Assembly: GCA_021787535.1 (NCBI GenBank)
Contig: JAJYLR010000001.1
Location: 19,648-83,647 of the forward strand
From: a bacterium
GTDB taxonomy: Bacteria > Patescibacteriota > CPR2 > UBA1875 > JAJYID01
Reading direction: 5' to 3'
Length of the DNA stretch: 64,000 nucleotides
The notes under the pieces are model-generated. The model made no database searches, had not been told where the DNA came from, and worked only from the letters and a program-made list of their open reading frames with translations. This document shows positions 7,138 to 61,756 of this stretch, piece after piece. Position 1 is the first letter of the stretch, and each line of letters begins with the position of its first letter. Position numbers and translations under genes: made by a program.

Positions 7138-7764
7138 ATGACACAAAAAGAAATTGTTCCGCATGATAGCAGATACATTGTTCTAACTCAGCAAAGTTTT
7201 TGTTGTCTTCCAACCTGTATCCAAATGGTTATGATTAGGCATAATATTCCGTTGGTTCAATCAGAAGAATTAGCTTATCACTTTGGTCTTTCTGTCACAA
7301 AAGAATTCAAACATTTATTTTGGAATCCAAGGTTGGTAGATAAACTACCGAAACAATACAGTGAACCAACAACCAGAATAAGTAAGCCGGAGTATGAACC
7401 AAACAAAGTTTTTAAGCAAATGGGTATTCCTCTAAGGTTTAGTCAAACTCTTATTAATCAGTTTAAAAAATTTAACGATTTTGAGGAATACCTAAAAGAA
7501 GCCATCAAAGAGGGACGAGATACTTTAATCTGCTTTGATTGGGAAATTGCAAATCCTGACTACTTTGATAATTACATTGGTGGTTATGGTCATGTTGCTC
7601 TTCTTGATAAACTGATTAATGATAAAGAAATCCGTTACATTGATCCTGAACATGGTTATTCGAAATGGCCAATTATAAAGATAGAAACCCTTTATGAAGC
7701 AATGAAAAGTCATGGTTCAGATAGGGGTGCCGGTTTTTGGGAATTAGAATACATTAAGGAGTAA
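7138..7764 (+). CDS. Papain-fold cysteine peptidase/acyltransferase-like protein (peptidase C39_2 / BtrH-like)
   Basis: Putative catalytic triad: Gln/Cys in QQSFCCLPTCIQMVM, His in GGYGHVALLD, Asp in IDPEHG. The order and spacing fit the C39-like fold. Confidence 0.45.
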   Translation: MTQKEIVPHDSRYIVLTQQSFCCLPTCIQMVMIRHNIPLVQSEELAYHFGLSVTKEFKHLFWNPRLVDKLPKQYSEPTTRISKPEYEPNKVFKQMGIPLRFSQTLINQFKKFNDFEEYLKEAIKEGRDTLICFDWEIANPDYFDNYIGGYGHVALLDKLINDKEIRYIDPEHGYSKWPIIKIETLYEAMKSHGSDRGAGFWELEYIKE

Positions 7765-21136: not shown

Positions 21137-21952
21137 ATGAAAAAGCGAATTGATATTTTATTGGTTGACAAAGGATTTGCTGGAACCAGAACTAAAGCCC
21201 AAGCTATGCTCATGTCGGGCTCTGTATTTATCGGTGGGCAAAGAGTTGACAAAGTCGGGACTTTGGTTGAAGAAACTGCCGAGGTTGAAATTAGAGAAAA
21301 GTTTCCTTACGTCTCTCGCGGGGCGCTAAAAATAGAAAAAGCTTACGAAGAATTTGATTTGAATTTTCAAGATAAGGTTATTTGTGATATAGGTTCGTCA
21401 ACCGGGGGATTTACCGACTTTGCCTTGCAGCACGGGGCTAAGAAGGTTTTTGCCGTCGATGTCGGATACGGCCAGCTGGACCGGAAACTTCGTGAAGATT
21501 CCCGGGTGGTTGTAATGGAGAAGACCAATTTCCGTGACATCGAATCCCGGGACGATTTTTCTAAACGCGTCATTCTGACTTGTCCAGGATCAAAAAATCA
21601 TGTGAAAAATGCAGATTCCGGTCAAGCCAGAATGACGATTGAAAAAATCGATTATTTCGTCTGCGATGTCTCATTTATTTCCTTAAAGAAGATTATTCCG
21701 CAGATTAAAAAAATCGCCGATTATTCCACTGAGTGCATTTTACTCATAAAGCCACAGTTCGAAGTTGGCAAGGAAATCGCCGACAAAACAAAAGGAGTTA
21801 TTAGAGACGAAGAAATCCAAAGAGCGGTTGTTGAGGATATCGCGAAATTTGCGGAGAGTTCAGGATTTAGAGTGCAAGGAATTACAGATTCACCGATAAC
21901 CGGCGCGAAGGGCAATAAGGAATTTTTATTGTGGTTGGCATTTAATCGATAA
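21137..21952 (+). CDS. tlyA: TlyA family rRNA 2'-O-methyltransferase (S4 domain plus FtsJ-like MTase), carrying an in-frame palindromic-element insertion
   Basis: S4 domain N-terminus, SAM motif VICDIGSSTGGFTDFA, and CDVSFISL. A 26-aa inserted segment sits between the SAM fold and DVSFISL. Confidence 0.85.
   Translation: MKKRIDILLVDKGFAGTRTKAQAMLMSGSVFIGGQRVDKVGTLVEETAEVEIREKFPYVSRGALKIEKAYEEFDLNFQDKVICDIGSSTGGFTDFALQHGAKKVFAVDVGYGQLDRKLREDSRVVVMEKTNFRDIESRDDFSKRVILTCPGSKNHVKNADSGQARMTIEKIDYFVCDVSFISLKKIIPQIKKIADYSTECILLIKPQFEVGKEIADKTKGVIRDEEIQRAVVEDIAKFAESSGFRVQGITDSPITGAKGNKEFLLWLAFNR
21568..21637. repeat. Intragenic composite palindromic element (family 1) inserted in-frame in tlyA. It encodes ...[23 protein letters not shown]...
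   Basis: cgtcattctgac...gattccgg-tcaag-ccagaatgacg. Outer 10-nt inverted termini. The 23-nt core matches copies at 26612, 38515 and 23600. Confidence 0.8.
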
Positions 21953-22388
21953 AATCAGGTATTGATTCGATGATATTATTATTCCTAATTTCTATGATTA
22001 GTTTCTTTTTGGGAGCTATTTTTATGCCATGGGTGTTTTTAACATCAAATTTAGAAATTATTTCACCGCTCAGCTTAGCCGAGATTTCTTTAAGATCAGA
22101 TGTGCTATATGCGATATGTTCAACAAATGTCTTTTTAATCAACTCATTTGGGTTTGGCTCTGAAATTTCGAGTAAAAAATCTTCTAGCGCGCCGGTCAAG
22201 ATATGCTTATCGTGAAAAAAGACTTCATTATAAATCTTTCCTCTTGTCTCAACCTCTTCTTTTAGCTTTCGGTAATCTGATTTTGTTGCTTTAATTCCAT
22301 AATGGTCAAATTGTATGCTGAAACCAACTTTTTCCATATATTCGTCAGCCAACTTCTTTTTCTCTAGCAGTAAGCTTTCTCTAATCAT
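21942..22388 (-). CDS. Hypothetical protein
   Basis: ORF with an ATG start. No confident family. Confidence 0.4.
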   Translation of the reverse strand: MIRESLLLEKKKLADEYMEKVGFSIQFDHYGIKATKSDYRKLKEEVETRGKIYNEVFFHDKHILTGALEDFLLEISEPNPNELIKKTFVEHIAYSTSDLKEISAKLSGEIISKFDVKNTHGIKIAPKKKLIIEIRNNNIIESIPDFID

Positions 22389-22403
22389 AGGTGTTCCTTA
22401 AAC

Positions 22404-22490
22404 ATTAAACTTCAAGACCATGGCGCCGCCGTCTTTCACAACATAATCTTTTCCTTCGAGGCGGACTTTGCCGGCCGCTTTAATGTCTTT
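22404..22490 (-). pseudogene. Duplicated, slightly degenerate copy of the ychF 3' end (last ~29 codons, [30 protein letters not shown])
   Basis: About 75/85 nt identical to 23205-23289 (the true ychF C-terminus). In frame, with its own stop. Confidence 0.75.
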
Positions 22491-22498
22491 CTTTACAA

Positions 22499-23089
22499 TT
22501 AATCCTGAGACACTCCAGAGATTTCTTGCGCTTTCTTAATAATAAACCGGAGGAAGGCGATAAAGAGTGCAAAAAGACCGCCTTTTTCTTTGCTTTCTAT
22601 TTGTTTTTTGACTGCCTCGGGGCTGCCGTTTGCCATGAACTGAATAAGTTCGGCCATAGCTTCATTTTGAGCTATTTGGGATTCGATTAATGCGAGAATC
22701 TCTTCACGCTGGTTTGCGGCGATGTTATCAAAATTTTCCTGAAGTTGCGCGTCGATTTTCCCTAGCATTTCGCTAAATCCTTCAGATGTTAATTCTGTAC
22801 TTTCAATTGCTTCCGTGGGCTCATCAGTGTCATCAGTTTCTATTCCCAGCTGCTGACGCAGTTTATTTATTTCGGCTAATTCTTCCGGTGGGGATTCTGC
22901 CTCGGCTCGCTGTTCTTGGTCTGTCTGCCCCTCTTTTGTTGTCTCAGTTAATTCTTCCGGCGAAAGTTCTTGTAAATTATCAGGTTTATCTACTGTACCT
23001 TCGGGGCCTTCCGATACTGTTTCACTTAGTTCTGGTTGAGGTTGTGCCATTTCCCCGGAGTCAGGAAACTGTGGTATTTCTTCATTCAT
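22499..23089 (-). CDS. Hypothetical highly acidic protein (D/E/Q/T-rich N-terminal ~150 aa) with a C-terminal hydrophobic helix
   Basis: Compositional features only. Lies between ychF and the duplicated ychF 3' fragment. Confidence 0.5.
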   Translation of the reverse strand: MNEEIPQFPDSGEMAQPQPELSETVSEGPEGTVDKPDNLQELSPEELTETTKEGQTDQEQRAEAESPPEELAEINKLRQQLGIETDDTDEPTEAIESTELTSEGFSEMLGKIDAQLQENFDNIAANQREEILALIESQIAQNEAMAELIQFMANGSPEAVKKQIESKEKGGLFALFIAFLRFIIKKAQEISGVSQD

Positions 23090-23193
23090 GCTGCCATTCC
23101 TTTTTTATTTGAACTTATAATACACCCTATAAATATCTTAACACAAGTCCCAGATTCTCTAGAATTCATTGCCAATAGCGGATTTTTTCTCTA

Positions 23194-24348
23194 TCATACA
23201 TTAAACTTAAAAATCATCACATCGCCGTCTTTCACAACATAATCTTTCCCTTCGAGGCGGACTTTGCCGGCCGCTTTGGCGCCTGACCATCCTTTATTTT
23301 CTACCAAATCTTTCCAATCCACAGTCTCGGCTTTGATGAAGCCCTTTTCAAAATCGGTATGAATGATGCCGGCGGCTTGAGGCGCCTTATCCCCTTTGTG
23401 AATTGTCCATGCTTTAATCTCTTTCTCTCCTGCTGTAAAGTAAGTTTTGAGTCCGAGCAGATCATATCCTTTCTTGATTAACCGATTTAATCCCGTCTCG
23501 GATTGTCCGAGCTCTGCCAAATATTCTTTCTTTTCTTCTTCGGAAAGCTCATTGAGCTCAGACTCGATTTTTGCCGAAATAATAACATAATCTTTCTCCG
23601 TCATTCTGGCTTGACCAGAATCTGTCATTTTTGAATTTTTTTCATTAGGATTTGATTGGAAATTGCCTGCTTGCCTGCGAGGCAGGGAAATTGGAAATTG
23701 AAAATTCTTTGTGAGGTGTTCTTCATCGACATTAAATATGTAAATATGAGGTTTCAAGGTAAGCAAGTTTAGATCCTTAATATGCCCGATTTCTTTTTCT
23801 GTGAGACCCAGTTCGCGAGCAGTTTTTCCTTTCTCGAGTTCGGTCTGAATTTTTTGGACTAAAGCTAAGGTTTCCTTAAGTTTTGGATCACCTTTTATAT
23901 CTTTCGTTAATTTTGCAGTCCTTTTCCCTGCCGTTTCGAGATCGGCCAGGATAAGCTCCATCTTGATGGTCTCCATGTCGGATGTCGGGTTTATTTCTCC
24001 GGTGACGTGGGTAATATTGGCGTCGGTAAATACGCGCACCACCTCGGCGATGGCGTCGCACTGCCGGATATTGGCCAGGAATTTATTGCCGAGCCCTTCC
24101 CCTTCCGCCGCTCCTTTGACTATCCCGGCAATATCTACGAACTCCACGATGGCCGGAACGATTTTTTGGGTCGGAATGACCCCAGCCATTTTCGTGAGCC
24201 GCTCATCCGGCACCTCGACGATTCCAACATTGGGATCAATGGTGCAAAACGGGTAATTCGAAGCTTCAGCTTTATTCTGCGTCAAAGCGTTAAAAAGCGT
24301 GCTTTTGCCAACGTTTGGCAGTCCGACTATTCCGATAGATAAACCCAT
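23194..24348 (-). CDS. ychF: Ribosome-binding ATPase YchF (Obg-family GTPase), carrying an in-frame palindromic-element insertion. The annotated start is the internal [20 protein letters not shown]; the longer ORF to 24534 is probably not translated.
   Basis: G1 [22 protein letters not shown]-terminal TGS domain ...[19 protein letters not shown] ~38-aa insert ([38 protein letters not shown]) precedes the helical domain. Confidence 0.85.
23594..23712. repeat. Intragenic palindromic element (family 1 core plus a second imperfect palindrome) inserted in-frame in ychF
   Basis: gtcattctggcttgaccagaatc is the family-1 core in reverse orientation. It is followed by cctgcttgcctgcgaggcagg, an imperfect palindrome. 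Confidence 0.75.
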
Positions 24349-24409
24349 GAATTCCTTAATTAGTTTACCAATTTTATCATAAATTCTCGTCTTTTTTAAG
24401 CAAAAACCT

Positions 24410-43335: not shown

Positions 43336-43749
43336 GTCATTCCGACCGCCACTATGCTAATGAAAAGTGGAGGAATCCCTTACTCGTAGTATAATCTACT
43401 TATGGCCAAAAATTATATTTTCCATGTTCATATATTAGCTAGTGAGAGTGGTACTCTATACATTGGTGTCACCAATGACCTAGTTAGAAGAATATATCAA
43501 CACAGGAGCGATTTAATAGAAGGATTTAGCAAAAAGTATCAATGCCATAAATTAGTTTATTATGAAGAAACATCAGATGTTGAAAGCGCAATTAAAAGAG
43601 AAAAACAAATTAAAAATTGGAGCAGAAAGAAAAAAGAAGGTTTGATCAAAACCAAAAACCCAACCTGGAGAGATTTATCAGGTGATTTATAAAATATTAA
43701 TACAAAGGGATTCCTCCGCTCTACTTTTACGGAAGTTGGTCGGAATGAC
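43336..43749. mobile_element. Family-3 palindromic element carrying a GIY-YIG nuclease gene in its central loop. Outer arms are gtcattccgacc / ggtcggaatgac; inner arms are ggaggaatccc / gggattcctcc.
   Basis: Both arm pairs are exact reverse complements. An empty counterpart lies at 50893-50980. Confidence 0.75.
43402..43692 (+). CDS. Small stand-alone GIY-YIG nuclease family protein (UPF0213/YhbQ-like)
   Basis: YIFHVHILASESGTLYIGVTNDLVRRIYQHR (GIY...YIG) with conserved Arg and Glu downstream. Confidence 0.8.
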   Translation: MAKNYIFHVHILASESGTLYIGVTNDLVRRIYQHRSDLIEGFSKKYQCHKLVYYEETSDVESAIKREKQIKNWSRKKKEGLIKTKNPTWRDLSGDL

Positions 43750-43761
43750 AAAGAGAGCTGT

Positions 43762-45195
43762 ATGAAAGCGGTTTTTACAAGCGTTATTTTATTAGCCGTT
43801 ATGGCCGGCATATTTCTCGCTCCTTATTTTGACGTTTCTATACTGAGCGTGGTTGCTCTTTTTGGCATTTTCTTTCTCCTTAGCTTGTCAGTCGTTCCTA
43901 AAAAATGGCTCTGGCTTTTCATGATAGTCATTAGTTTTCTCTTTCTCGGTATTTTTCGTTTTATCCAAGTACAAAACGCCATTTACAACCTCTCTTATCC
44001 AACTGATCAGGAGGTAAAGCTCCAAGGCCAGGTTGTTGAACCGCCGGAAGAAACGGATAAATCGGTGAAAGCCGTTTTGAAAGATGAGGCAAGGGGCGGT
44101 AAAATTATTTTGATTTTAAAACCCTTCACTAAGGTGAAATATGGCGACCGGCTGTCAGTGAGCGGCAAAGTTAGCATTCCGGCTCAAGAGTATCAAAATT
44201 CTCTTTTAGTAAAAGGTATTGTTTATGAGATGGCCTTTCCGCAAATAGAGCGGGCCGGACCGGGCAAAATGGATATTTCAATGAAAATTCAAAATGGCCT
44301 TTACTCTCTTAGAAACCGTTTTGAGGAGAGTATAAACAGCATATTTCCCGAACCGGAGGCATCATTTCTGGCCGGATTGCTTTTAGGGGTAAAAAGAAAT
44401 CTTCCTGCCTGGCTTACTCAAGATCTCAAAGCCAGCGGCACTACCCATTTGATTGCCCTTTCAGGGTTTAATATTACTGTCATCATTGAGGCATTAAGGA
44501 TAATCTTTAGGCGGCGCAGCGCCAAACTAAGTTTTTATATCCCATTGCTTGTTATTTTTGCTTTTGTGGTTATGACCGGTTCTTCGTCTTCGGTCGTCAG
44601 AGCCGGCATTATGGGAGCAATGATGCTTCTTACTTATCGGGTAGGACGGCAATCTTCAGCTGTCATGGCAATAGTTATTACGGCAGCTATCATGGTTTTC
44701 GCCAATCCTTTTATTTTGCGTTTTGATGCCGGCTTTCAGCTCTCTTTCGCCGCCTTTATCGGGATCATTTATTTTGCGCCTATGATTAGTATGTTTTTGC
44801 CTCTTAAACATGAGTTTGCAAAAGAAATGCTGGCAATGACCTTAGGCGCGCAGATCATGGCTTATCCTTTAATTCTCTATTATTTTGGCACCTTTTCTAT
44901 AGTCTCATCCGCTGCCAACTTAGTCGTTCTGCCTTTTATTCCATTTGTGATGCTGCTTGGTTTTGTGACGGCAGCTGTAGGAATGGTCTGGCAAGGACTG
45001 GGTTATGCTATGTCATTCACCGCCCTTTTTGCCTTAAAGGCAGTGATCGAAACAATCCATTTCTTTGCCCTTCTCCCTTTATCTTCCATAAGCGGTATCA
45101 GCTTTTCCGCATTCAACGCCACTCTCTATTATATAATAATTTTGGAATTGGTTTTTATCTGCAAGAGGCGTCTTGTAAGGAGGCGTCTTGCCTAA
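43762..45195 (+). CDS. comEC: ComEC/Rec2 DNA internalisation channel, membrane (competence) domain only
   Basis: Multiple TM helices, N-terminal OB-like region, competence motif region ASGTTHLIALSGFNITVI. Confidence 0.8.
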   Translation: MKAVFTSVILLAVMAGIFLAPYFDVSILSVVALFGIFFLLSLSVVPKKWLWLFMIVISFLFLGIFRFIQVQNAIYNLSYPTDQEVKLQGQVVEPPEETDKSVKAVLKDEARGGKIILILKPFTKVKYGDRLSVSGKVSIPAQEYQNSLLVKGIVYEMAFPQIERAGPGKMDISMKIQNGLYSLRNRFEESINSIFPEPEASFLAGLLLGVKRNLPAWLTQDLKASGTTHLIALSGFNITVIIEALRIIFRRRSAKLSFYIPLLVIFAFVVMTGSSSSVVRAGIMGAMMLLTYRVGRQSSAVMAIVITAAIMVFANPFILRFDAGFQLSFAAFIGIIYFAPMISMFLPLKHEFAKEMLAMTLGAQIMAYPLILYYFGTFSIVSSAANLVVLPFIPFVMLLGFVTAAVGMVWQGLGYAMSFTALFALKAVIETIHFFALLPLSSISGISFSAFNATLYYIIILELVFICKRRLVRRRLA

Positions 45196-50892: not shown

Positions 50893-50980
50893 GTCATCCC
50901 GAGCGTTAGTCGAGGGATCTCTTATTTATCTCAGAAAGGGATTTCTCCGCTCGTCGATTCTCGAAGTCGGTCGAAATGAC
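50893..50980. repeat. Empty family-3 palindromic element: gtcatcccgagcg...cgagggatctc, a 16-nt central loop, gggatttctcc...ggtcgaaatgac. Same architecture as the GIY-YIG-bearing element at 43336-43749.
   Basis: Outer and inner arms correspond to those flanking the GIY-YIG gene. Between ruvA and ruvB. Confidence 0.7.
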
Positions 50981-50994
50981 AAGGCGGAGGCATT

Positions 50995-54534: not shown

Positions 54535-54990
54535 ATGAAAATAATAACAAGAAGCTCAGAAGAAACAGTTGACCTAGGAGAAAAATTAGGTAAATCCCTG
54601 AAAGGCGGAGAAGTTCTTGCCCTTTACGGTGACCTTGGCGGCGGTAAAACCCAGTTTACAAAAGGTATAGCCAAAGGACTTGGCATTAAAGATAATATTC
54701 TCTCGCCCACTTTCACCATTCGCCGTGAGTATAAAGGCAAGAAGTTAAATCTTCTGCATTATGATTTCTACCGATTTGAATTGCCGGACCGGGAGCTTAT
54801 TGAAAGCATGGAAGAAGGCATTAATCCTGACAATGTGACGGTGATAGAATGGGCGGAAAGGGTTGAGAAACATTTGCCCAATGATGCAGTTAAAATCAAT
54901 TTCAAATACATTTCGGAAAACGAGAGGGAAATAGAAGTTATGCCCGGCAGCCGGAATTTAGAAAATAAGTTTAGTAAGCTGTCATTCTGA
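54535..54990 (+). CDS. tsaE: tRNA threonylcarbamoyladenosine biosynthesis protein TsaE (YjeE)
   Basis: P-loop LALYGDLGGGKTQFTKGIAKGLG, SPTFTI, HYDFYRFE motifs. Confidence 0.85.
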   Translation: MKIITRSSEETVDLGEKLGKSLKGGEVLALYGDLGGGKTQFTKGIAKGLGIKDNILSPTFTIRREYKGKKLNLLHYDFYRFELPDRELIESMEEGINPDNVTVIEWAERVEKHLPNDAVKINFKYISENEREIEVMPGSRNLENKFSKLSF

Positions 54991-55010
54991 GGAACGAAGA
55001 ATCTCATGAG
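54981..55010 (+). repeat. 30-nt repeat gtcattctgaggaacgaagaatctcatgag, left copy. It supplies the ATG of the GIY-YIG gene.
   Basis: Identical to 55347-55376. Hairpin ATTCT-gaggaacga-AGAAT with GTCATTC-family ends. Confidence 0.8.
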
Positions 55011-55329
55011 TTATTATGTCTATATCTTAACAAATAGAATAAACAAAGTTCTTTATACCGGTATGACCAATAATTTAGAAAGAAGGATTTTCGAGCACAA
55101 AAATAAATTGGTTAAAGGGTTTACTGAGAAGTATAATTTGAATAAATTGGTATATTTTGAAGAATTTCCGGCGGCAAAAGAAGCGATCGAAAATGAGAAG
55201 AGAATTAAGGGCTGGGTAAGAAGAAAAAAGATTGCATTGATTGAGGCGAAAAATAAGAATTGGATTGATTTATCGAAAGAAAATAGATCCTTTGTCGTTC
55301 CTCCTCAGGATGACAATAACCAAGGATGA
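55006..55329 (+). CDS. Small stand-alone GIY-YIG nuclease family protein (UPF0213/YhbQ-like) inserted between tsaE and tsaB
   Basis: YYVYILTNRINKVLYTGMTNNLERRIFEHK. Confidence 0.8.
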   Translation: MSYYVYILTNRINKVLYTGMTNNLERRIFEHKNKLVKGFTEKYNLNKLVYFEEFPAAKEAIENEKRIKGWVRRKKIALIEAKNKNWIDLSKENRSFVVPPQDDNNQG

Positions 55330-55346
55330 AATATAACTCGACAACA

Positions 55347-55376
55347 GTCATTCTGAGGAACGAAGAATCTCATGAG
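55347..55376 (+). repeat. 30-nt repeat gtcattctgaggaacgaagaatctcatgag, right copy (direct). It supplies the ATG of tsaB.
   Basis: Exact direct repeat of 54981-55010. Confidence 0.8.
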
Positions 55377-55830
55377 AATAATTATGAAAAACACATTAGT
55401 AATAGACACTTCAGATAAGGTTGCCAGGTTTGGTTTGTTTCAGGACGACAAACTGGTTGATACTTTAGAATGGGAGGCGCATCGGGAGCTTTCCAAAACC
55501 TTTTATGCCAAATTGGATGAGTTACTTGAGCGAAATAAACTGAGCTACCAGGATTTGGATTCAATTATTGTGGTTTGCGGCCCCGGATCATTTACCGGTC
55601 TTCGTATCGGAACTGTAATCGTAAATGCATTTGCCTATGCTTTGGAAATCGAAACGGCTGGTGTGATTCAGCCTCCTTGTCATTCCGGACTAGATCCGGA
55701 ATCTAAACCCCTCAAAAAACTAACATTAGAAGAAATTTATAACGCCGGAAAAAAAGACCTGAAAAAGGGCCGGACTCTCGAGCCATTTTATGGCCGCGAA
55801 CCAAATATAACAGCCAAGAAGAAAAAATGA
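55372..55830 (+). CDS. tsaB: tRNA threonylcarbamoyladenosine biosynthesis protein TsaB (YeaZ), short form (152 aa)
   Basis: LVIDTS...VARFGLF, VVCGPGSFTGLRIGTVIVNAFAYA are typical of the TsaB N-terminal domain. Confidence 0.75.
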   Translation: MRIIMKNTLVIDTSDKVARFGLFQDDKLVDTLEWEAHRELSKTFYAKLDELLERNKLSYQDLDSIIVVCGPGSFTGLRIGTVIVNAFAYALEIETAGVIQPPCHSGLDPESKPLKKLTLEEIYNAGKKDLKKGRTLEPFYGREPNITAKKKK

Positions 55831-56320: not shown

Positions 56321-56654
56321 CTAGTACATAACCGGCTAAATAACGGGGACCTTCGGGTCCCCGTTTAAATATTGGACAATTTCTGTCTTGAAAAATGGGT
56401 AAAATGGGAGTATAGTAAAGTCAGTAAATTAAAAAATTAAATTTACCATTAATAACTAAAATTAATAAGGCATATGGGCGGAAGAGGATTTTAAACTGAA
56501 AACGAACTAGGGTTTTTTAGTTGTTTATTGGTACTCAAAAAAATTGTCATTTCACTTGTCATGCAGGTAGGATAATCCTTAAGTTTTGAATTTAGAACAT
56601 TCGGATTTAGACATTGTTTAGAATTTCGAATTTAGTGCTTCGAACTTAAGCTAA

Positions 56655-56697
56655 GGGATTCCTCCGCTCGCTTTTCATAGAGTTGGTCGGAATGACA
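56655..56697. repeat. Solo right half of a family-3 palindromic element (gggattcctcc...ggtcggaatgac) upstream of rny
   Basis: Matches the right arm of the GIY-YIG element at 43707-43749. Confidence 0.65.
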
Positions 56698-56719
56698 AAA
56701 CGTGAGAGAGGAGAAAAGT

Positions 56720-59811: not shown

Positions 59812-59888
59812 CGGGGTGTGGCGCAGTTGGCTAGCGCGCCTGCTTTGGGAGCAGGAGGCCGGAGGTTCGAGTCCTCTCACCCCGACCA
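59812..59888 (+). tRNA. tRNA-Pro (anticodon UGG)
   Basis: Folded by hand. C1:G72 acceptor cggggtg/caccccg, D-arm gcgc/gcgc, anticodon stem cctgc/gcagg with loop tttggga, T-arm ggagg-ttcgagt-cctct, discriminator A73, encoded CCA. Confidence 0.8.
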
Positions 59889-61409
59889 GATGAGACATTT
59901 TGAAAATTCAGGGGCGTTTTGTTGTACGCTCGCCCAACCTTCAGTAGTATTCGTTTCGCAAAAAGCCCTATATTTCGGAATTAAATCAAAGGGGCGGACA
60001 AATTCAAATTCAGCTTTTTGGGCAAGCAAACGGCGGTTCGTTCCAATTTTTTCCACCAATGACTTTATTTCATAAAAATCATCGGACAAAGCAAGTTTTT
60101 CGGCGCGGTGAGCGGTTTTTATCCATTCCCGCAAAGGTTCGATCCAACTGTTTCCCTTTCGCCCAAAATCAGACTCTCTTTTGCTAAGGTCTGTTTTTAT
60201 TTTTATAAGTTCATCTTTTTTTAAAAGATAAGTTTCTTTTTCAATACTTCCGTCTAAAAAAGCATTGACCAGTTTATCAAGTTTCGTTTCCGTCTCCTTG
60301 ATTTTCTTCTTGAAGCTTTGGGCGAAAGATTGCGCCGACCGGGCGTTGTCTTTTTCCCACACGTCAACTTGAGCGTTCATTTTTTCGGCCCAGCCGCCGC
60401 AAATAGCGATATTTTGAAGCCGTGATTTCAATTGATCAGCGAGTAAGTCCTCGCGTACATATCCTTGGCTGCATTTGCCGCGCTTTTTGGTACAGCGGTA
60501 ATAACGGTAAGTGCCGCCGTGTCCATGGGCAAACTGGGCGGTAATAGCGCCGCCGCACTCGCTGCAAGTTAAAAGCCCGACAAACGGGAAGTTATGCTTC
60601 CTTTTGCTTTTTCGAGGTCTTGCTCGCTGTTTTAGAACTTTTTGGACGGCTTCAAAAACGCTTAAGGAAACAATTGCCGGAAAACCGCCTTCATAGGTTT
60701 CACCATTGTGTACAATCAAACCGAGATAAACTTTGTTGGTGAGCATTCTCTGTAGCTTTGCCTTGCAAAATGGTTTTCCGGTTCTTCCAACCACGCCCCA
60801 AAAACTCAGGCGCCGGCCCAAACTTTCCAAAGTGTGTTGGCCATGGGCAAATTCCTCAAACGTTTTAACTACAAGTCTTGATTTTACAGGATCGGGTTCA
60901 ATATTTCTCGTTTTCGGATTATTCACATAGCCGAAAGGCGCAAGTGTCGGCCATTCGCCGCGCCTGATTTTTTGTCTGATCCCGCGCTTTACGTTCTCCG
61001 ACAAATTGTCGGAATAATACTTTGATTGGCCAAAGGCGACTTGAAGCATAAAGAGCCCTTGCGGAGTCGGCTCAAACCAAAAAGTGGGAAAGTTTAAAGA
61101 AACGATCTTGCCGATGTCAATACAATAAATTATTTGTCCGCCATCAACGGAATTTCTGGCCAAACGATCAGGGTGCCAAGCAATCAAGCCGATCGGTTCT
61201 TTGCTCTCGTGGACTTTGCCCATCATTTCATTAAAAACCTTCCGGCCCGGTTTCTTGGCGCTTTTAGATTCAATAAAGGTTTCCGCAATCTCTATATTTT
61301 CCCGTTTGGCAAATTCCGCCAACTCCGTAAGCTGCGCTTCAATAGACATCACTTGTCTTTCTTCATCTTCGGTGGATTTACGGGCGTAGAGAAAAAATCT
61401 TGTTTTCAT
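59877..61409 (-). CDS. Large serine recombinase (resolvase/invertase catalytic domain, recombinase domain, zinc-ribbon/coiled-coil), integrase-type
   Basis: N-terminus YARKSTEDEERQVMSIEAQ (catalytic Ser region). DRLARN. Recombinase domain. C-terminal Cys cluster CSECGG...C..C. Confidence 0.85.
   Translation of the reverse strand: MKTRFFLYARKSTEDEERQVMSIEAQLTELAEFAKRENIEIAETFIESKSAKKPGRKVFNEMMGKVHESKEPIGLIAWHPDRLARNSVDGGQIIYCIDIGKIVSLNFPTFWFEPTPQGLFMLQVAFGQSKYYSDNLSENVKRGIRQKIRRGEWPTLAPFGYVNNPKTRNIEPDPVKSRLVVKTFEEFAHGQHTLESLGRRLSFWGVVGRTGKPFCKAKLQRMLTNKVYLGLIVHNGETYEGGFPAIVSLSVFEAVQKVLKQRARPRKSKRKHNFPFVGLLTCSECGGAITAQFAHGHGGTYRYYRCTKKRGKCSQGYVREDLLADQLKSRLQNIAICGGWAEKMNAQVDVWEKDNARSAQSFAQSFKKKIKETETKLDKLVNAFLDGSIEKETYLLKKDELIKIKTDLSKRESDFGRKGNSWIEPLREWIKTAHRAEKLALSDDFYEIKSLVEKIGTNRRLLAQKAEFEFVRPFDLIPKYRAFCETNTTEGWASVQQNAPEFSKCLIWSG
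59884..60040. repeat. Left 157-bp inverted repeat (IR-L). It starts at the last 5 nt of tRNA-Pro and covers the 3' end (C-terminal ~50 codons) of the serine recombinase gene.
   Basis: Reverse complement matches 61544-61700 (first ~90 nt identical, ~92% overall). Confidence 0.85.
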
Positions 61410-61543
61410 AATGTTTCCTCCTTAATTTATATGTCTCCTTTGGCCTAAAAGCGTGGGATTAAAACTTGCTTTGTATTTTTGCTTTTGGCAAAAACGGAAA
61501 AAATCGGATACAAATTTCATTTGTGAATTTGCTTCGCAACTTT

Positions 61544-61700
61544 CGAACCGCCGTTTGCTTTCCCGAAAAGCCGAGTTTGAATTTGTCCGCCCCTTTGATT
61601 TAATTCCTAAATACAGGGTTTTTTGCGAAACGAATACTACTGAAGGTTGGGCGAGCGTACAACAAAACGCCCCTGAATTTTCAAAATGTCTCATCTGGTC
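61544..61700. repeat. Right 157-bp inverted repeat (IR-R), an inverted copy of the recombinase 3' end. It ends with gtctcatctggtc, which mirrors the tRNA-Pro junction.
   Basis: Seen directly. ORFs 59818-60075 and 61422-61694 translate to the same peptide on opposite strands. Confidence 0.85.
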
Positions 61701-61756
61701 GCAATTGCTGAACGTTGCTCGAACCCATTTCGAACAGGGAGAGGAATACTAGGGGC

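Follow-up and report, generated by a model that had tools for sequence, protein, structure and literature searches.

A duplicated ychF 3' end around a probable single-gene insertion in a member of the Patescibacteriota

The displacement of a 3' end by incoming DNA and the Campbell-type duplication of a gene end are already known. For rhs, Jackson et al. proposed a small circle with a conserved piece of the gene body, a new end and any intervening genes, which integrates through a single homologous crossover and thereby moves the old end downstream (2009, PMC2935791). Kirchberger et al. proposed homology-facilitated illegitimate recombination for type VI secretion system (T6SS) effector-immunity arrays (2017, PMC5361080). 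A passage of that paper cites de Vries and Wackernagel 2002, Prudhomme et al. 2002 and Meier and Wackernagel 2003 for this process, and a case from conjugation in Escherichia coli has also been described (PMC3240628). Moreover, the element e14 (and phage 21) in icd of E. coli leaves a tail pseudogene, icdC, according to a passage of PMC13626634 that cites Hill et al. 1989. In our study we analysed 64,000 nt of DNA from a bacterium of the Patescibacteriota (contig JAJYLR010000001.1, positions 19,648 to 83,647; hereafter the window), in which a gene for a 196-aa acidic protein lies between the intact gene ychF and a second copy of the ychF 3' end. We consider it very probable that an insertion with duplication of the ychF tail took place here, and we lean towards a recombinase-free, homology-anchored recombination in a single event as its route. 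What is new is the instance in a Patescibacteria housekeeping gene with a cargo that has no homologue.

The ychF locus resembles rhs in the succession of an intact gene, new DNA and a dissociated old 3' end, which retains a conserved stretch of the gene, here 27 codons of the YchF C-terminal domain. As in the T6SS arrays, an incoming module would have pushed the incumbent downstream, and in common with both systems the old downstream gene, here one for a 148-aa protein, is retained and no dedicated recombinase is found. However, the rhs and T6SS loci displace variable toxin domains together with immunity genes in recurring events that build arrays, whereas the present locus comprises a housekeeping GTPase/ATPase with two homologous tails and a cargo of a single gene, and it appears to reflect one event in one sampled population. 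YchF is not a polymorphic toxin of the Rhs/YD, CdiA or VgrG/PAAR-linked effector type, and neither the inserted gene nor the 148-aa gene matches a Pfam family above the cut-off.

At icd, e14 and phage 21 likewise sit at the 3' end of a housekeeping gene, with a repeat at both ends and the target gene left intact. Nevertheless, e14 is about 15 kb long, encodes its own integrase and excises, whereas the insert behind ychF has 716 nt and one open reading frame (ORF) and no recombinase. Homology-facilitated illegitimate recombination may offer a further parallel, in which unrelated DNA is gained beside a homology anchor and mobile-element machinery is not involved. Neither the remainder of the window nor the loci of relatives contain anything related to the 716-nt insert, which adjoins a stretch homologous to ychF. 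In the experimental cases recipient DNA between the anchor and the join is usually deleted. In contrast, the join at the present locus would fall inside ychF, upstream of the end of the donor homology, and the recipient tail would thus be kept.

The repeated gene end and the gene between its copies

On the minus strand the locus reads ychF, the 196-aa acidic ORF, an 84-nt copy of the ychF end and the 148-aa gene, which is followed by the convergent gene tlyA (Table 1). The core of this arrangement is a gapless direct repeat of positions 22402-22481 and 23198-23277, which was found with a repeat finder and aligned with MAFFT (72 of 80 nt identical; 796 nt from start to start). In blastn it reached E = 1.5e-24 against the 12.6-kb locus and 4.5e-24 in the self-comparison of the window. 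Extended through the stop codons, 74 of 84 positions are identical, and the longest exact stretch common to both copies has 29 nt. The two copies enclose 716 nt of unique DNA, so that the whole added unit amounts to about 796 bp. An earlier note on this DNA, made by reading the letters, had claimed a duplicated ychF end with about 75 of 85 nt identical, and both statements are borne out closely. Its positions were less exact: the copy, which it had placed at 22404-22490, ends at 22481, and the partner in ychF, which it had placed at 23205-23289, comprises 23194-23277 including the stop codon (an offset of up to 12 nt). Moreover, the copy holds 27 codons plus stop and not 29. The reading that it is still in frame was correct, as the 27-codon frame is open to the TAA at 22398-22400, and the gene for the acidic protein does lie between both copies (22499-23089), with spacers of 17 nt and 104 nt.

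The search for other gene termini duplicated around an ORF, which the note had suggested, returned no other direct case in the self-comparison of the 64-kb window, where the ychF repeat is the sole direct gene-end repeat of its kind. Apart from it, the comparison showed repeats at the starts of pilin genes and among ATPase paralogues, small palindromic elements and an inverted repeat that flanks a recombinase gene.

The two tails differ in their conformity with other YchF proteins. The C-terminal consensus DGDVM[IVL]FKF is highly regular among 120 homologues (D in 119, V or T in 119 and F in all 120). The tail that belongs to the full-length ychF conforms to this consensus, and over its final 27 nt, counted as far as the first stop-codon base, it does not differ from the ychF end of one relative, L083. 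The second tail reads DGGAMVLKF, with D replaced by G, V by A and F by L. Judged by its residues, this pseudo-tail would not be a working allele. Because consensus residues are changed and because it is positioned ahead of the 148-aa gene, we regard the pseudo-tail as the displaced old ychF end, which appears to be decaying.

The enclosed gene was described in the earlier note as encoding a very acidic protein with a C-terminal hydrophobic helix, in agreement with our analysis: the isoelectric point is 4.05, 23% of the residues are aspartate or glutamate, and a hydrophobic C-terminal segment at residues 168-188 lies within a predicted helix. A single-sequence AlphaFold2 model was poor (mean predicted local distance difference test 63.5, predicted template modelling score 0.26). 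In this model the first approximately 100 residues are irregular or predicted to be disordered except for one short helix, and they are followed by a long helix at 102-154 and the hydrophobic C-terminal helix at 167-191. With codon frequencies derived from 22 long window genes, the ORF scored 0.305 per codon in its own frame and negative in the other five frames; the genes ychF, tlyA and efp reached 0.27-0.35. In GC content the ORF is inconspicuous, and the insert shows no compositional anomaly. Its codon use makes it very likely that the ORF is genuinely coding and belongs to this lineage or a close one.

Searches for relatives of the acidic protein among 5.8 billion clusters and, by full phmmer, among 1.84 billion representatives retrieved only the protein itself. 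Viral contigs contained no homologue, and PHROGs gave nothing except one weak match to a tail protein (E = 0.013). As the acidic protein has no usable homologue in these searches, no donor or mobile context can be traced. The proposal of the earlier note to look for homologues in mobile contexts therefore led to none in any context.

The slot between ychF and tlyA in relatives

Relatives of the window's YchF were found in uncultured Patescibacteria at 72-81% identity, under names including 'Patescibacteria group bacterium' and 'candidate division WS5', and we examined the ychF loci of seven relatives (L083, L084, L088, L089, L092, L094 and L096). In L083 and L089, with YchF identities of 76% and 78%, a 150-aa gene starts 2 nt past the ychF stop codon. 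These genes are 57-59% identical to the 148-aa gene of the window and show the same overlap with the convergent tlyA. Neither locus contains the acidic gene or a second ychF tail. The junction in front of the downstream gene reads TAA-CT-ATGATT in L083 and TAG-AT-ATGATT in L089, and behind the pseudo-tail of the window it reads TAA-GGAACAC-CT-ATGATT. The same CT-ATGATT junction is present, and therefore the pseudo-tail occupies the place of the relatives' ychF end.

Because L083 and L089 carry neither the acidic gene nor the second tail, the direct succession of ychF and the 148-aa gene is most likely the ancestral state for this lineage, to which the insert would have been added. On this comparison the window appears to have gained approximately 796 bp in a slot that varies. 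Looking at the region downstream of ychF in related genomes had been proposed in the earlier note as a check, and the two loci without insert and without duplication support the acidic gene as the added part.

The remaining relatives differ in what they carry between ychF and tlyA. The slot holds a transglutaminase-core gene in L084, a gene of roughly 690 aa on the opposite strand in L088 and L094, with or without a glycosyltransferase, and a 72-aa cupin in L096, and it is empty in L092. The neighbour tlyA was present in all relatives examined, and the flanking order S6-SSB-S18-EF-P-TlyA is retained as far as the fetched contigs extend. Since the slot content differs among the relatives examined, recombining cells with differing slot contents plausibly exist. 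A second ychF tail was absent from the loci of the seven relatives (blastn-short and tblastn) and from all of 95 other ychF loci searched by tblastn, which came from 80 genomes of other species and 15 contigs of relatives.

The interval on the other side of ychF also varies among the relatives; L094, for example, has a nucleotidyltransferase/HEPN pair there.

The route of insertion and its rivals

The earlier note had suggested an insertion by recombination at the ychF terminus with duplication of the target, through a distinct mechanism of integration. The relatives support the added gene and the duplicated gene end, and the search at the site gave no support for a distinct, reusable mechanism or a mobile context. 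Pfam detected no recombinase or transposase domain in the insert, which has a single ORF between the repeats, and precomputed Pfam matches showed no recombinase family in the approximately 6 kb to each side. Terminal inverted repeats are lacking, and no inverted repeat has both arms in 22482-23197. Folding of both junction regions did not exceed shuffled sequences (z = 0.5-0.8), which leaves no hairpin at the junctions, and the site has no tRNA and no Rfam match. The missing recombinase and element ends and the 95 ychF loci that have no second tail leave a distinct integration mechanism without support. Transposons and insertion sequences would differ from the locus by a transposase domain, by terminal inverted repeats and by the length of the duplication, as 80-84 nt is far longer than their target duplications of about 2-15 bp. 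An integron cassette would be similar with regard to a single gene of about 0.7 kb, the lack of a consensus promoter found upstream, the defined insertion point and the downstream shift of older content. However, the insert has no attC-like imperfect palindrome and no IntI-type integrase nearby, and its flank is an 80-nt gene end rather than a recombination core site.

Because the site carries no element machinery, recombination through the ychF homology remains. The ancestor would have had ychF, 2 nt and then the 148-aa gene. Donor DNA, supplied by a closely related cell or by another part of the genome itself, with the acidic gene just 3' of a copy of the ychF end, would have recombined with the chromosome via the short homology in ychF. 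It may have been a small circle that entered by a single Campbell-type crossover, or a linear fragment with its homology anchor in ychF and an illegitimate join at the other end. These two routes are the ones that were proposed for the same anatomy at rhs and in the T6SS arrays, respectively. By taking the incoming tail ychF would have been kept whole, with the acidic gene now behind it. The old 84-nt tail would have been shifted downstream, still joined to the 148-aa gene, and would have lost its coding constraint. The 148-aa gene, no longer situated behind a translated gene, would then have gained a ribosome-binding site through a 7-nt insertion as a later repair; the inserted GGAACAC and the preceding TAA form a Shine-Dalgarno-like AAGGAA just 5' of its start. 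The nature of the donor, its circular or linear form, the use of host homologous recombination and which of the tails was incoming are parts of this course that we infer. Host-like codons and a host-like GC content of the insert would be expected for a closely related donor, whose own slot would have contained the acidic gene, in agreement with the variable slot content.

Some observations weigh against this course of events. A same-species genome without the insert was not found, so that the event is deduced from relatives with YchF identities of 76-81%. All contigs with the acidic or the 148-aa protein share one structure, a 23-nt probe on JGI metagenomes matched solely an unrelated ABC-transporter gene on a high-GC contig, and a scan of a genome collection with YchF gave nothing closer than 57% identity. 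No donor was found either, the acidic gene being without homologue in the protein searches, and 80 nt is a short substrate for a RecA-dependent crossover. Moreover, the mismatches between the tails are clustered, as the first 55 nt contain one and the 14 nt behind them seven (repeat positions 55-68; P about 7e-4), and six of the seven change A/T to G/C in a genome of roughly 40% GC. This is odd for simple decay after the event, and an extra assumption is needed, be it selection, a single complex mutation or two alleles that were homogenised later. An original reading of GAC GTC ATG GTC TTT in the copy, as in L096, would make four of the seven synonymous or conservative allele differences and leave three decay mutations. 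This hints at tails from two alleles whose first 55 nt were homogenised later. A template for the changed stretch was not found elsewhere in the window with up to 3 mismatches allowed.

We also considered the changed stretch as an RNA hairpin or terminator and rejected this, since 25% of random sets of seven substitutions and 58% of G/C sets folded equally well or better. The pseudo-tail region folds no better than shuffled sequences, and the scanned region has no terminator-like site on the minus strand.

Among the other explanations, an eroded site-specific integrative element similar to e14 or phage 21 deserves most attention, and we regard it as unlikely. Its attachment site would have contained a substitute ychF tail, and its integrase and everything but the acidic gene would have been lost. 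The anatomy would be that of icd and icdC around e14 as outlined in the corresponding passage of PMC13626634. A near-identical block followed by a diverged part would fit a crossover core and an old captured tail, and a large serine recombinase is encoded elsewhere in the window (59877-61409). Nevertheless, the tails are separated by just 716 nt with a single ORF that has no recombinase domain, no integrase is found within about 6 kb on each side, and the codon usage is host-like. To our knowledge, serine recombinases neither need nor create repeats of 80 nt. The 95 other ychF loci without second tail show that ychF is no recurrent attachment site in this sample, PHROGs and viral contigs provided no viral relatives, and an internal deletion down to one gene that spared both ends is an extra assumption. 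Less probable still is the reversed direction, in which ychF originally preceded the acidic gene, and a relative's fragment with a ychF tail, the 148-aa gene and tlyA arrived later, anchored by homology on its tlyA side and joined illegitimately behind the acidic gene. This also runs counter to the proposed event, and it would explain why the closest YchF relatives, L084 (81%) and L088 (80%), have no 148-aa gene and why the variable stretch of the pseudo-tail is nearer to the L096-type allele than to the window's own ychF tail, as would be expected of a foreign tail. However, the first 55 nt of the pseudo-tail match the window's own ychF at 54 of 55 positions and are clearly unlike those of L083, L084, L089 and L096. 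The identity of 57-59% between the 148-aa protein and its orthologues fits vertical descent beside a YchF of 76-78%, the convergent overlap of this gene with tlyA is common to L083 and L089, and it is the acidic gene that has no relatives.

A local origin, in which the ychF end and the DNA downstream of it were duplicated in tandem and one copy diverged into the acidic gene, is highly improbable in our view. Gene birth of this kind would agree with the absence of any homologue of the acidic protein and with its predicted disorder over about half of its length, both of which are common in young genes, and the host-like codon usage would fit as well. It would require very different rates of divergence, as the flanking repeat is still 90% identical, and a tandem unit of 796 nt would have to take in some of tlyA, of which there is no duplicate. 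This reading was rejected, since blastn, tblastx and BLASTP revealed no similarity between the insert and the 148-aa gene, tlyA, other parts of the window or the relatives' loci. The chance that two strain variants were artificially joined through their common ychF end is close to negligible, even with metagenomic data and a slot that varies between relatives. The same structure occurs in three assemblies, namely in the window, in a 107-kb ENA k141 contig and in a 4-kb Logan contig, which come from different assemblers and are 100% identical over 3.2-3.5 kb covering both copies. The k-mers of such assemblers exceed 29 nt, which is the longest exact run shared by the copies, and a mis-join through the repeat is therefore unlikely. 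In addition, the collection searched held no alternative contig with the 148-aa gene.

A broader reading of the homology-anchored insertion would be that the 796-bp unit is an 'address-tagged' cassette, a small circle that carries a housekeeping gene end, enters behind this gene by host recombination only and without damage to it, and can loop out again via the repeat, and that reduced Patescibacteria use such units regularly. We consider this very unlikely, and it is without support beyond this one case. If it were true, these bacteria would have a regular route to gain or swap lineage-only genes at slots such as that between ychF and tlyA. Most bacterial gene gains leave no trace of their route; here a recombination scar was kept and relatives show the prior state. 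The case documents the turnover of the ychF-tlyA slot among related genomes and, on the homology-anchored reading, at least one gain via a housekeeping gene end without element-encoded machinery at the site, followed by the repair of a downstream translation start. It thus provides a useful worked example and leaves the field's view of gene gain unchanged.

Parts of the locus and other repeats in the window

Table 1. Features of the ychF-tlyA locus, with positions in the window.
Feature	Positions	Strand	Basis or remark
ychF	23194..24351	-	385 aa from ATG at 24351; stop TGA at 23194-23196; intact, clade-consensus end
Repeat copy 1, working 3' end of ychF	23198..23277	-	Repeat alignment
104-nt spacer, ychF stop to acidic ORF	23090..23193	-	Sequence reading
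Inserted ORF, 196-aa acidic protein	22499..23089	-	ORF list
17-nt spacer, acidic ORF stop to displaced tail	22482..22498	-	Sequence reading
Putative displaced ychF tail (pseudo-tail)	22398..22481	-	27 codons plus TAA, open frame
GGAACAC, 7 nt	22391..22397	-	Missing in L083 and L089
148-aa gene	21942..22388	-	3' end overlaps 3' end of convergent tlyA
tlyA-like rRNA methyltransferase (S4 + FtsJ)	21137..21952	+	Pfam; conserved far border of the variable slot

The product of ychF matches the Pfam families MMR_HSR1 and YchF-GTPase_C (E = 1e-38). In the 104-nt spacer a Shine-Dalgarno-like AAGGAA is located ahead of the acidic ORF, with its AGGA core 8 nt from the ATG; a promoter scan of the minus strand of this spacer revealed no consensus promoter, and there was no structure signal. 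At the left junction GACATT is followed directly by AAAGCGG. The pseudo-tail is in a frame different from that of the acidic ORF and is contained in no listed ORF of at least 40 aa.

The stop codon TGA of ychF is followed immediately by an in-frame TAG (window positions 23194-23199), and the aligned ychF genes of L083, L084, L088 and L089 end in TAA or TAG. The TGA-TAG end would be consistent with a replacement of the sequence behind the stop codon during insertion.

Small palindromic elements lie in frame within ychF (23599-23642) and within tlyA (21568-21637), where they appear in TlyA as ...DSGQARMT.... In L083 the corresponding point of YchF carries another palindromic insert (about 7490-7600), which reads ...CHPERSGAESKDP..., and the length of YchF ranges from 359 to 419 aa among the relatives.

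The large serine recombinase of the window has 510 aa and is encoded at 59877-61409 on the minus strand (Pfam Resolvase, Recombinase and Zn_ribbon_recom). The last 52 codons of its gene are repeated in inverted orientation just 5' of its own start (region 59812-61701), with arms at 59883-60040 and 61544-61701 that are identical at 151 of 158 nt and a copy whose frame is open. This is the second gene-end duplication in the window, but it is inverted and linked to a recombinase. In antisense, the recombinase gene and a tRNA-Pro gene (59812-59888) overlap at their 3' ends, and the repeat reaches about 6 nt into the tRNA before it stops. The region may represent a segment that can invert, or else an element that was inserted at the tRNA.

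Two further repeats were observed in the window. A sequence of about 48 nt occurs at 43705-43752, 50935-50982 and 56653-56699 with 79-85% identity and ends between a few and about 13 nt 5' of the plus-strand ORF starts at 43762, 50995 and 56702; it may be a shared promoter or leader element. Besides, a 40-nt direct repeat (92.5% identity; 54981-55018 and 55347-55386, 366 nt apart) lies across the end of tsaE (54535-54990) and, with its second copy, across the start of a 152-aa TsaD-like ORF (55372-55830).

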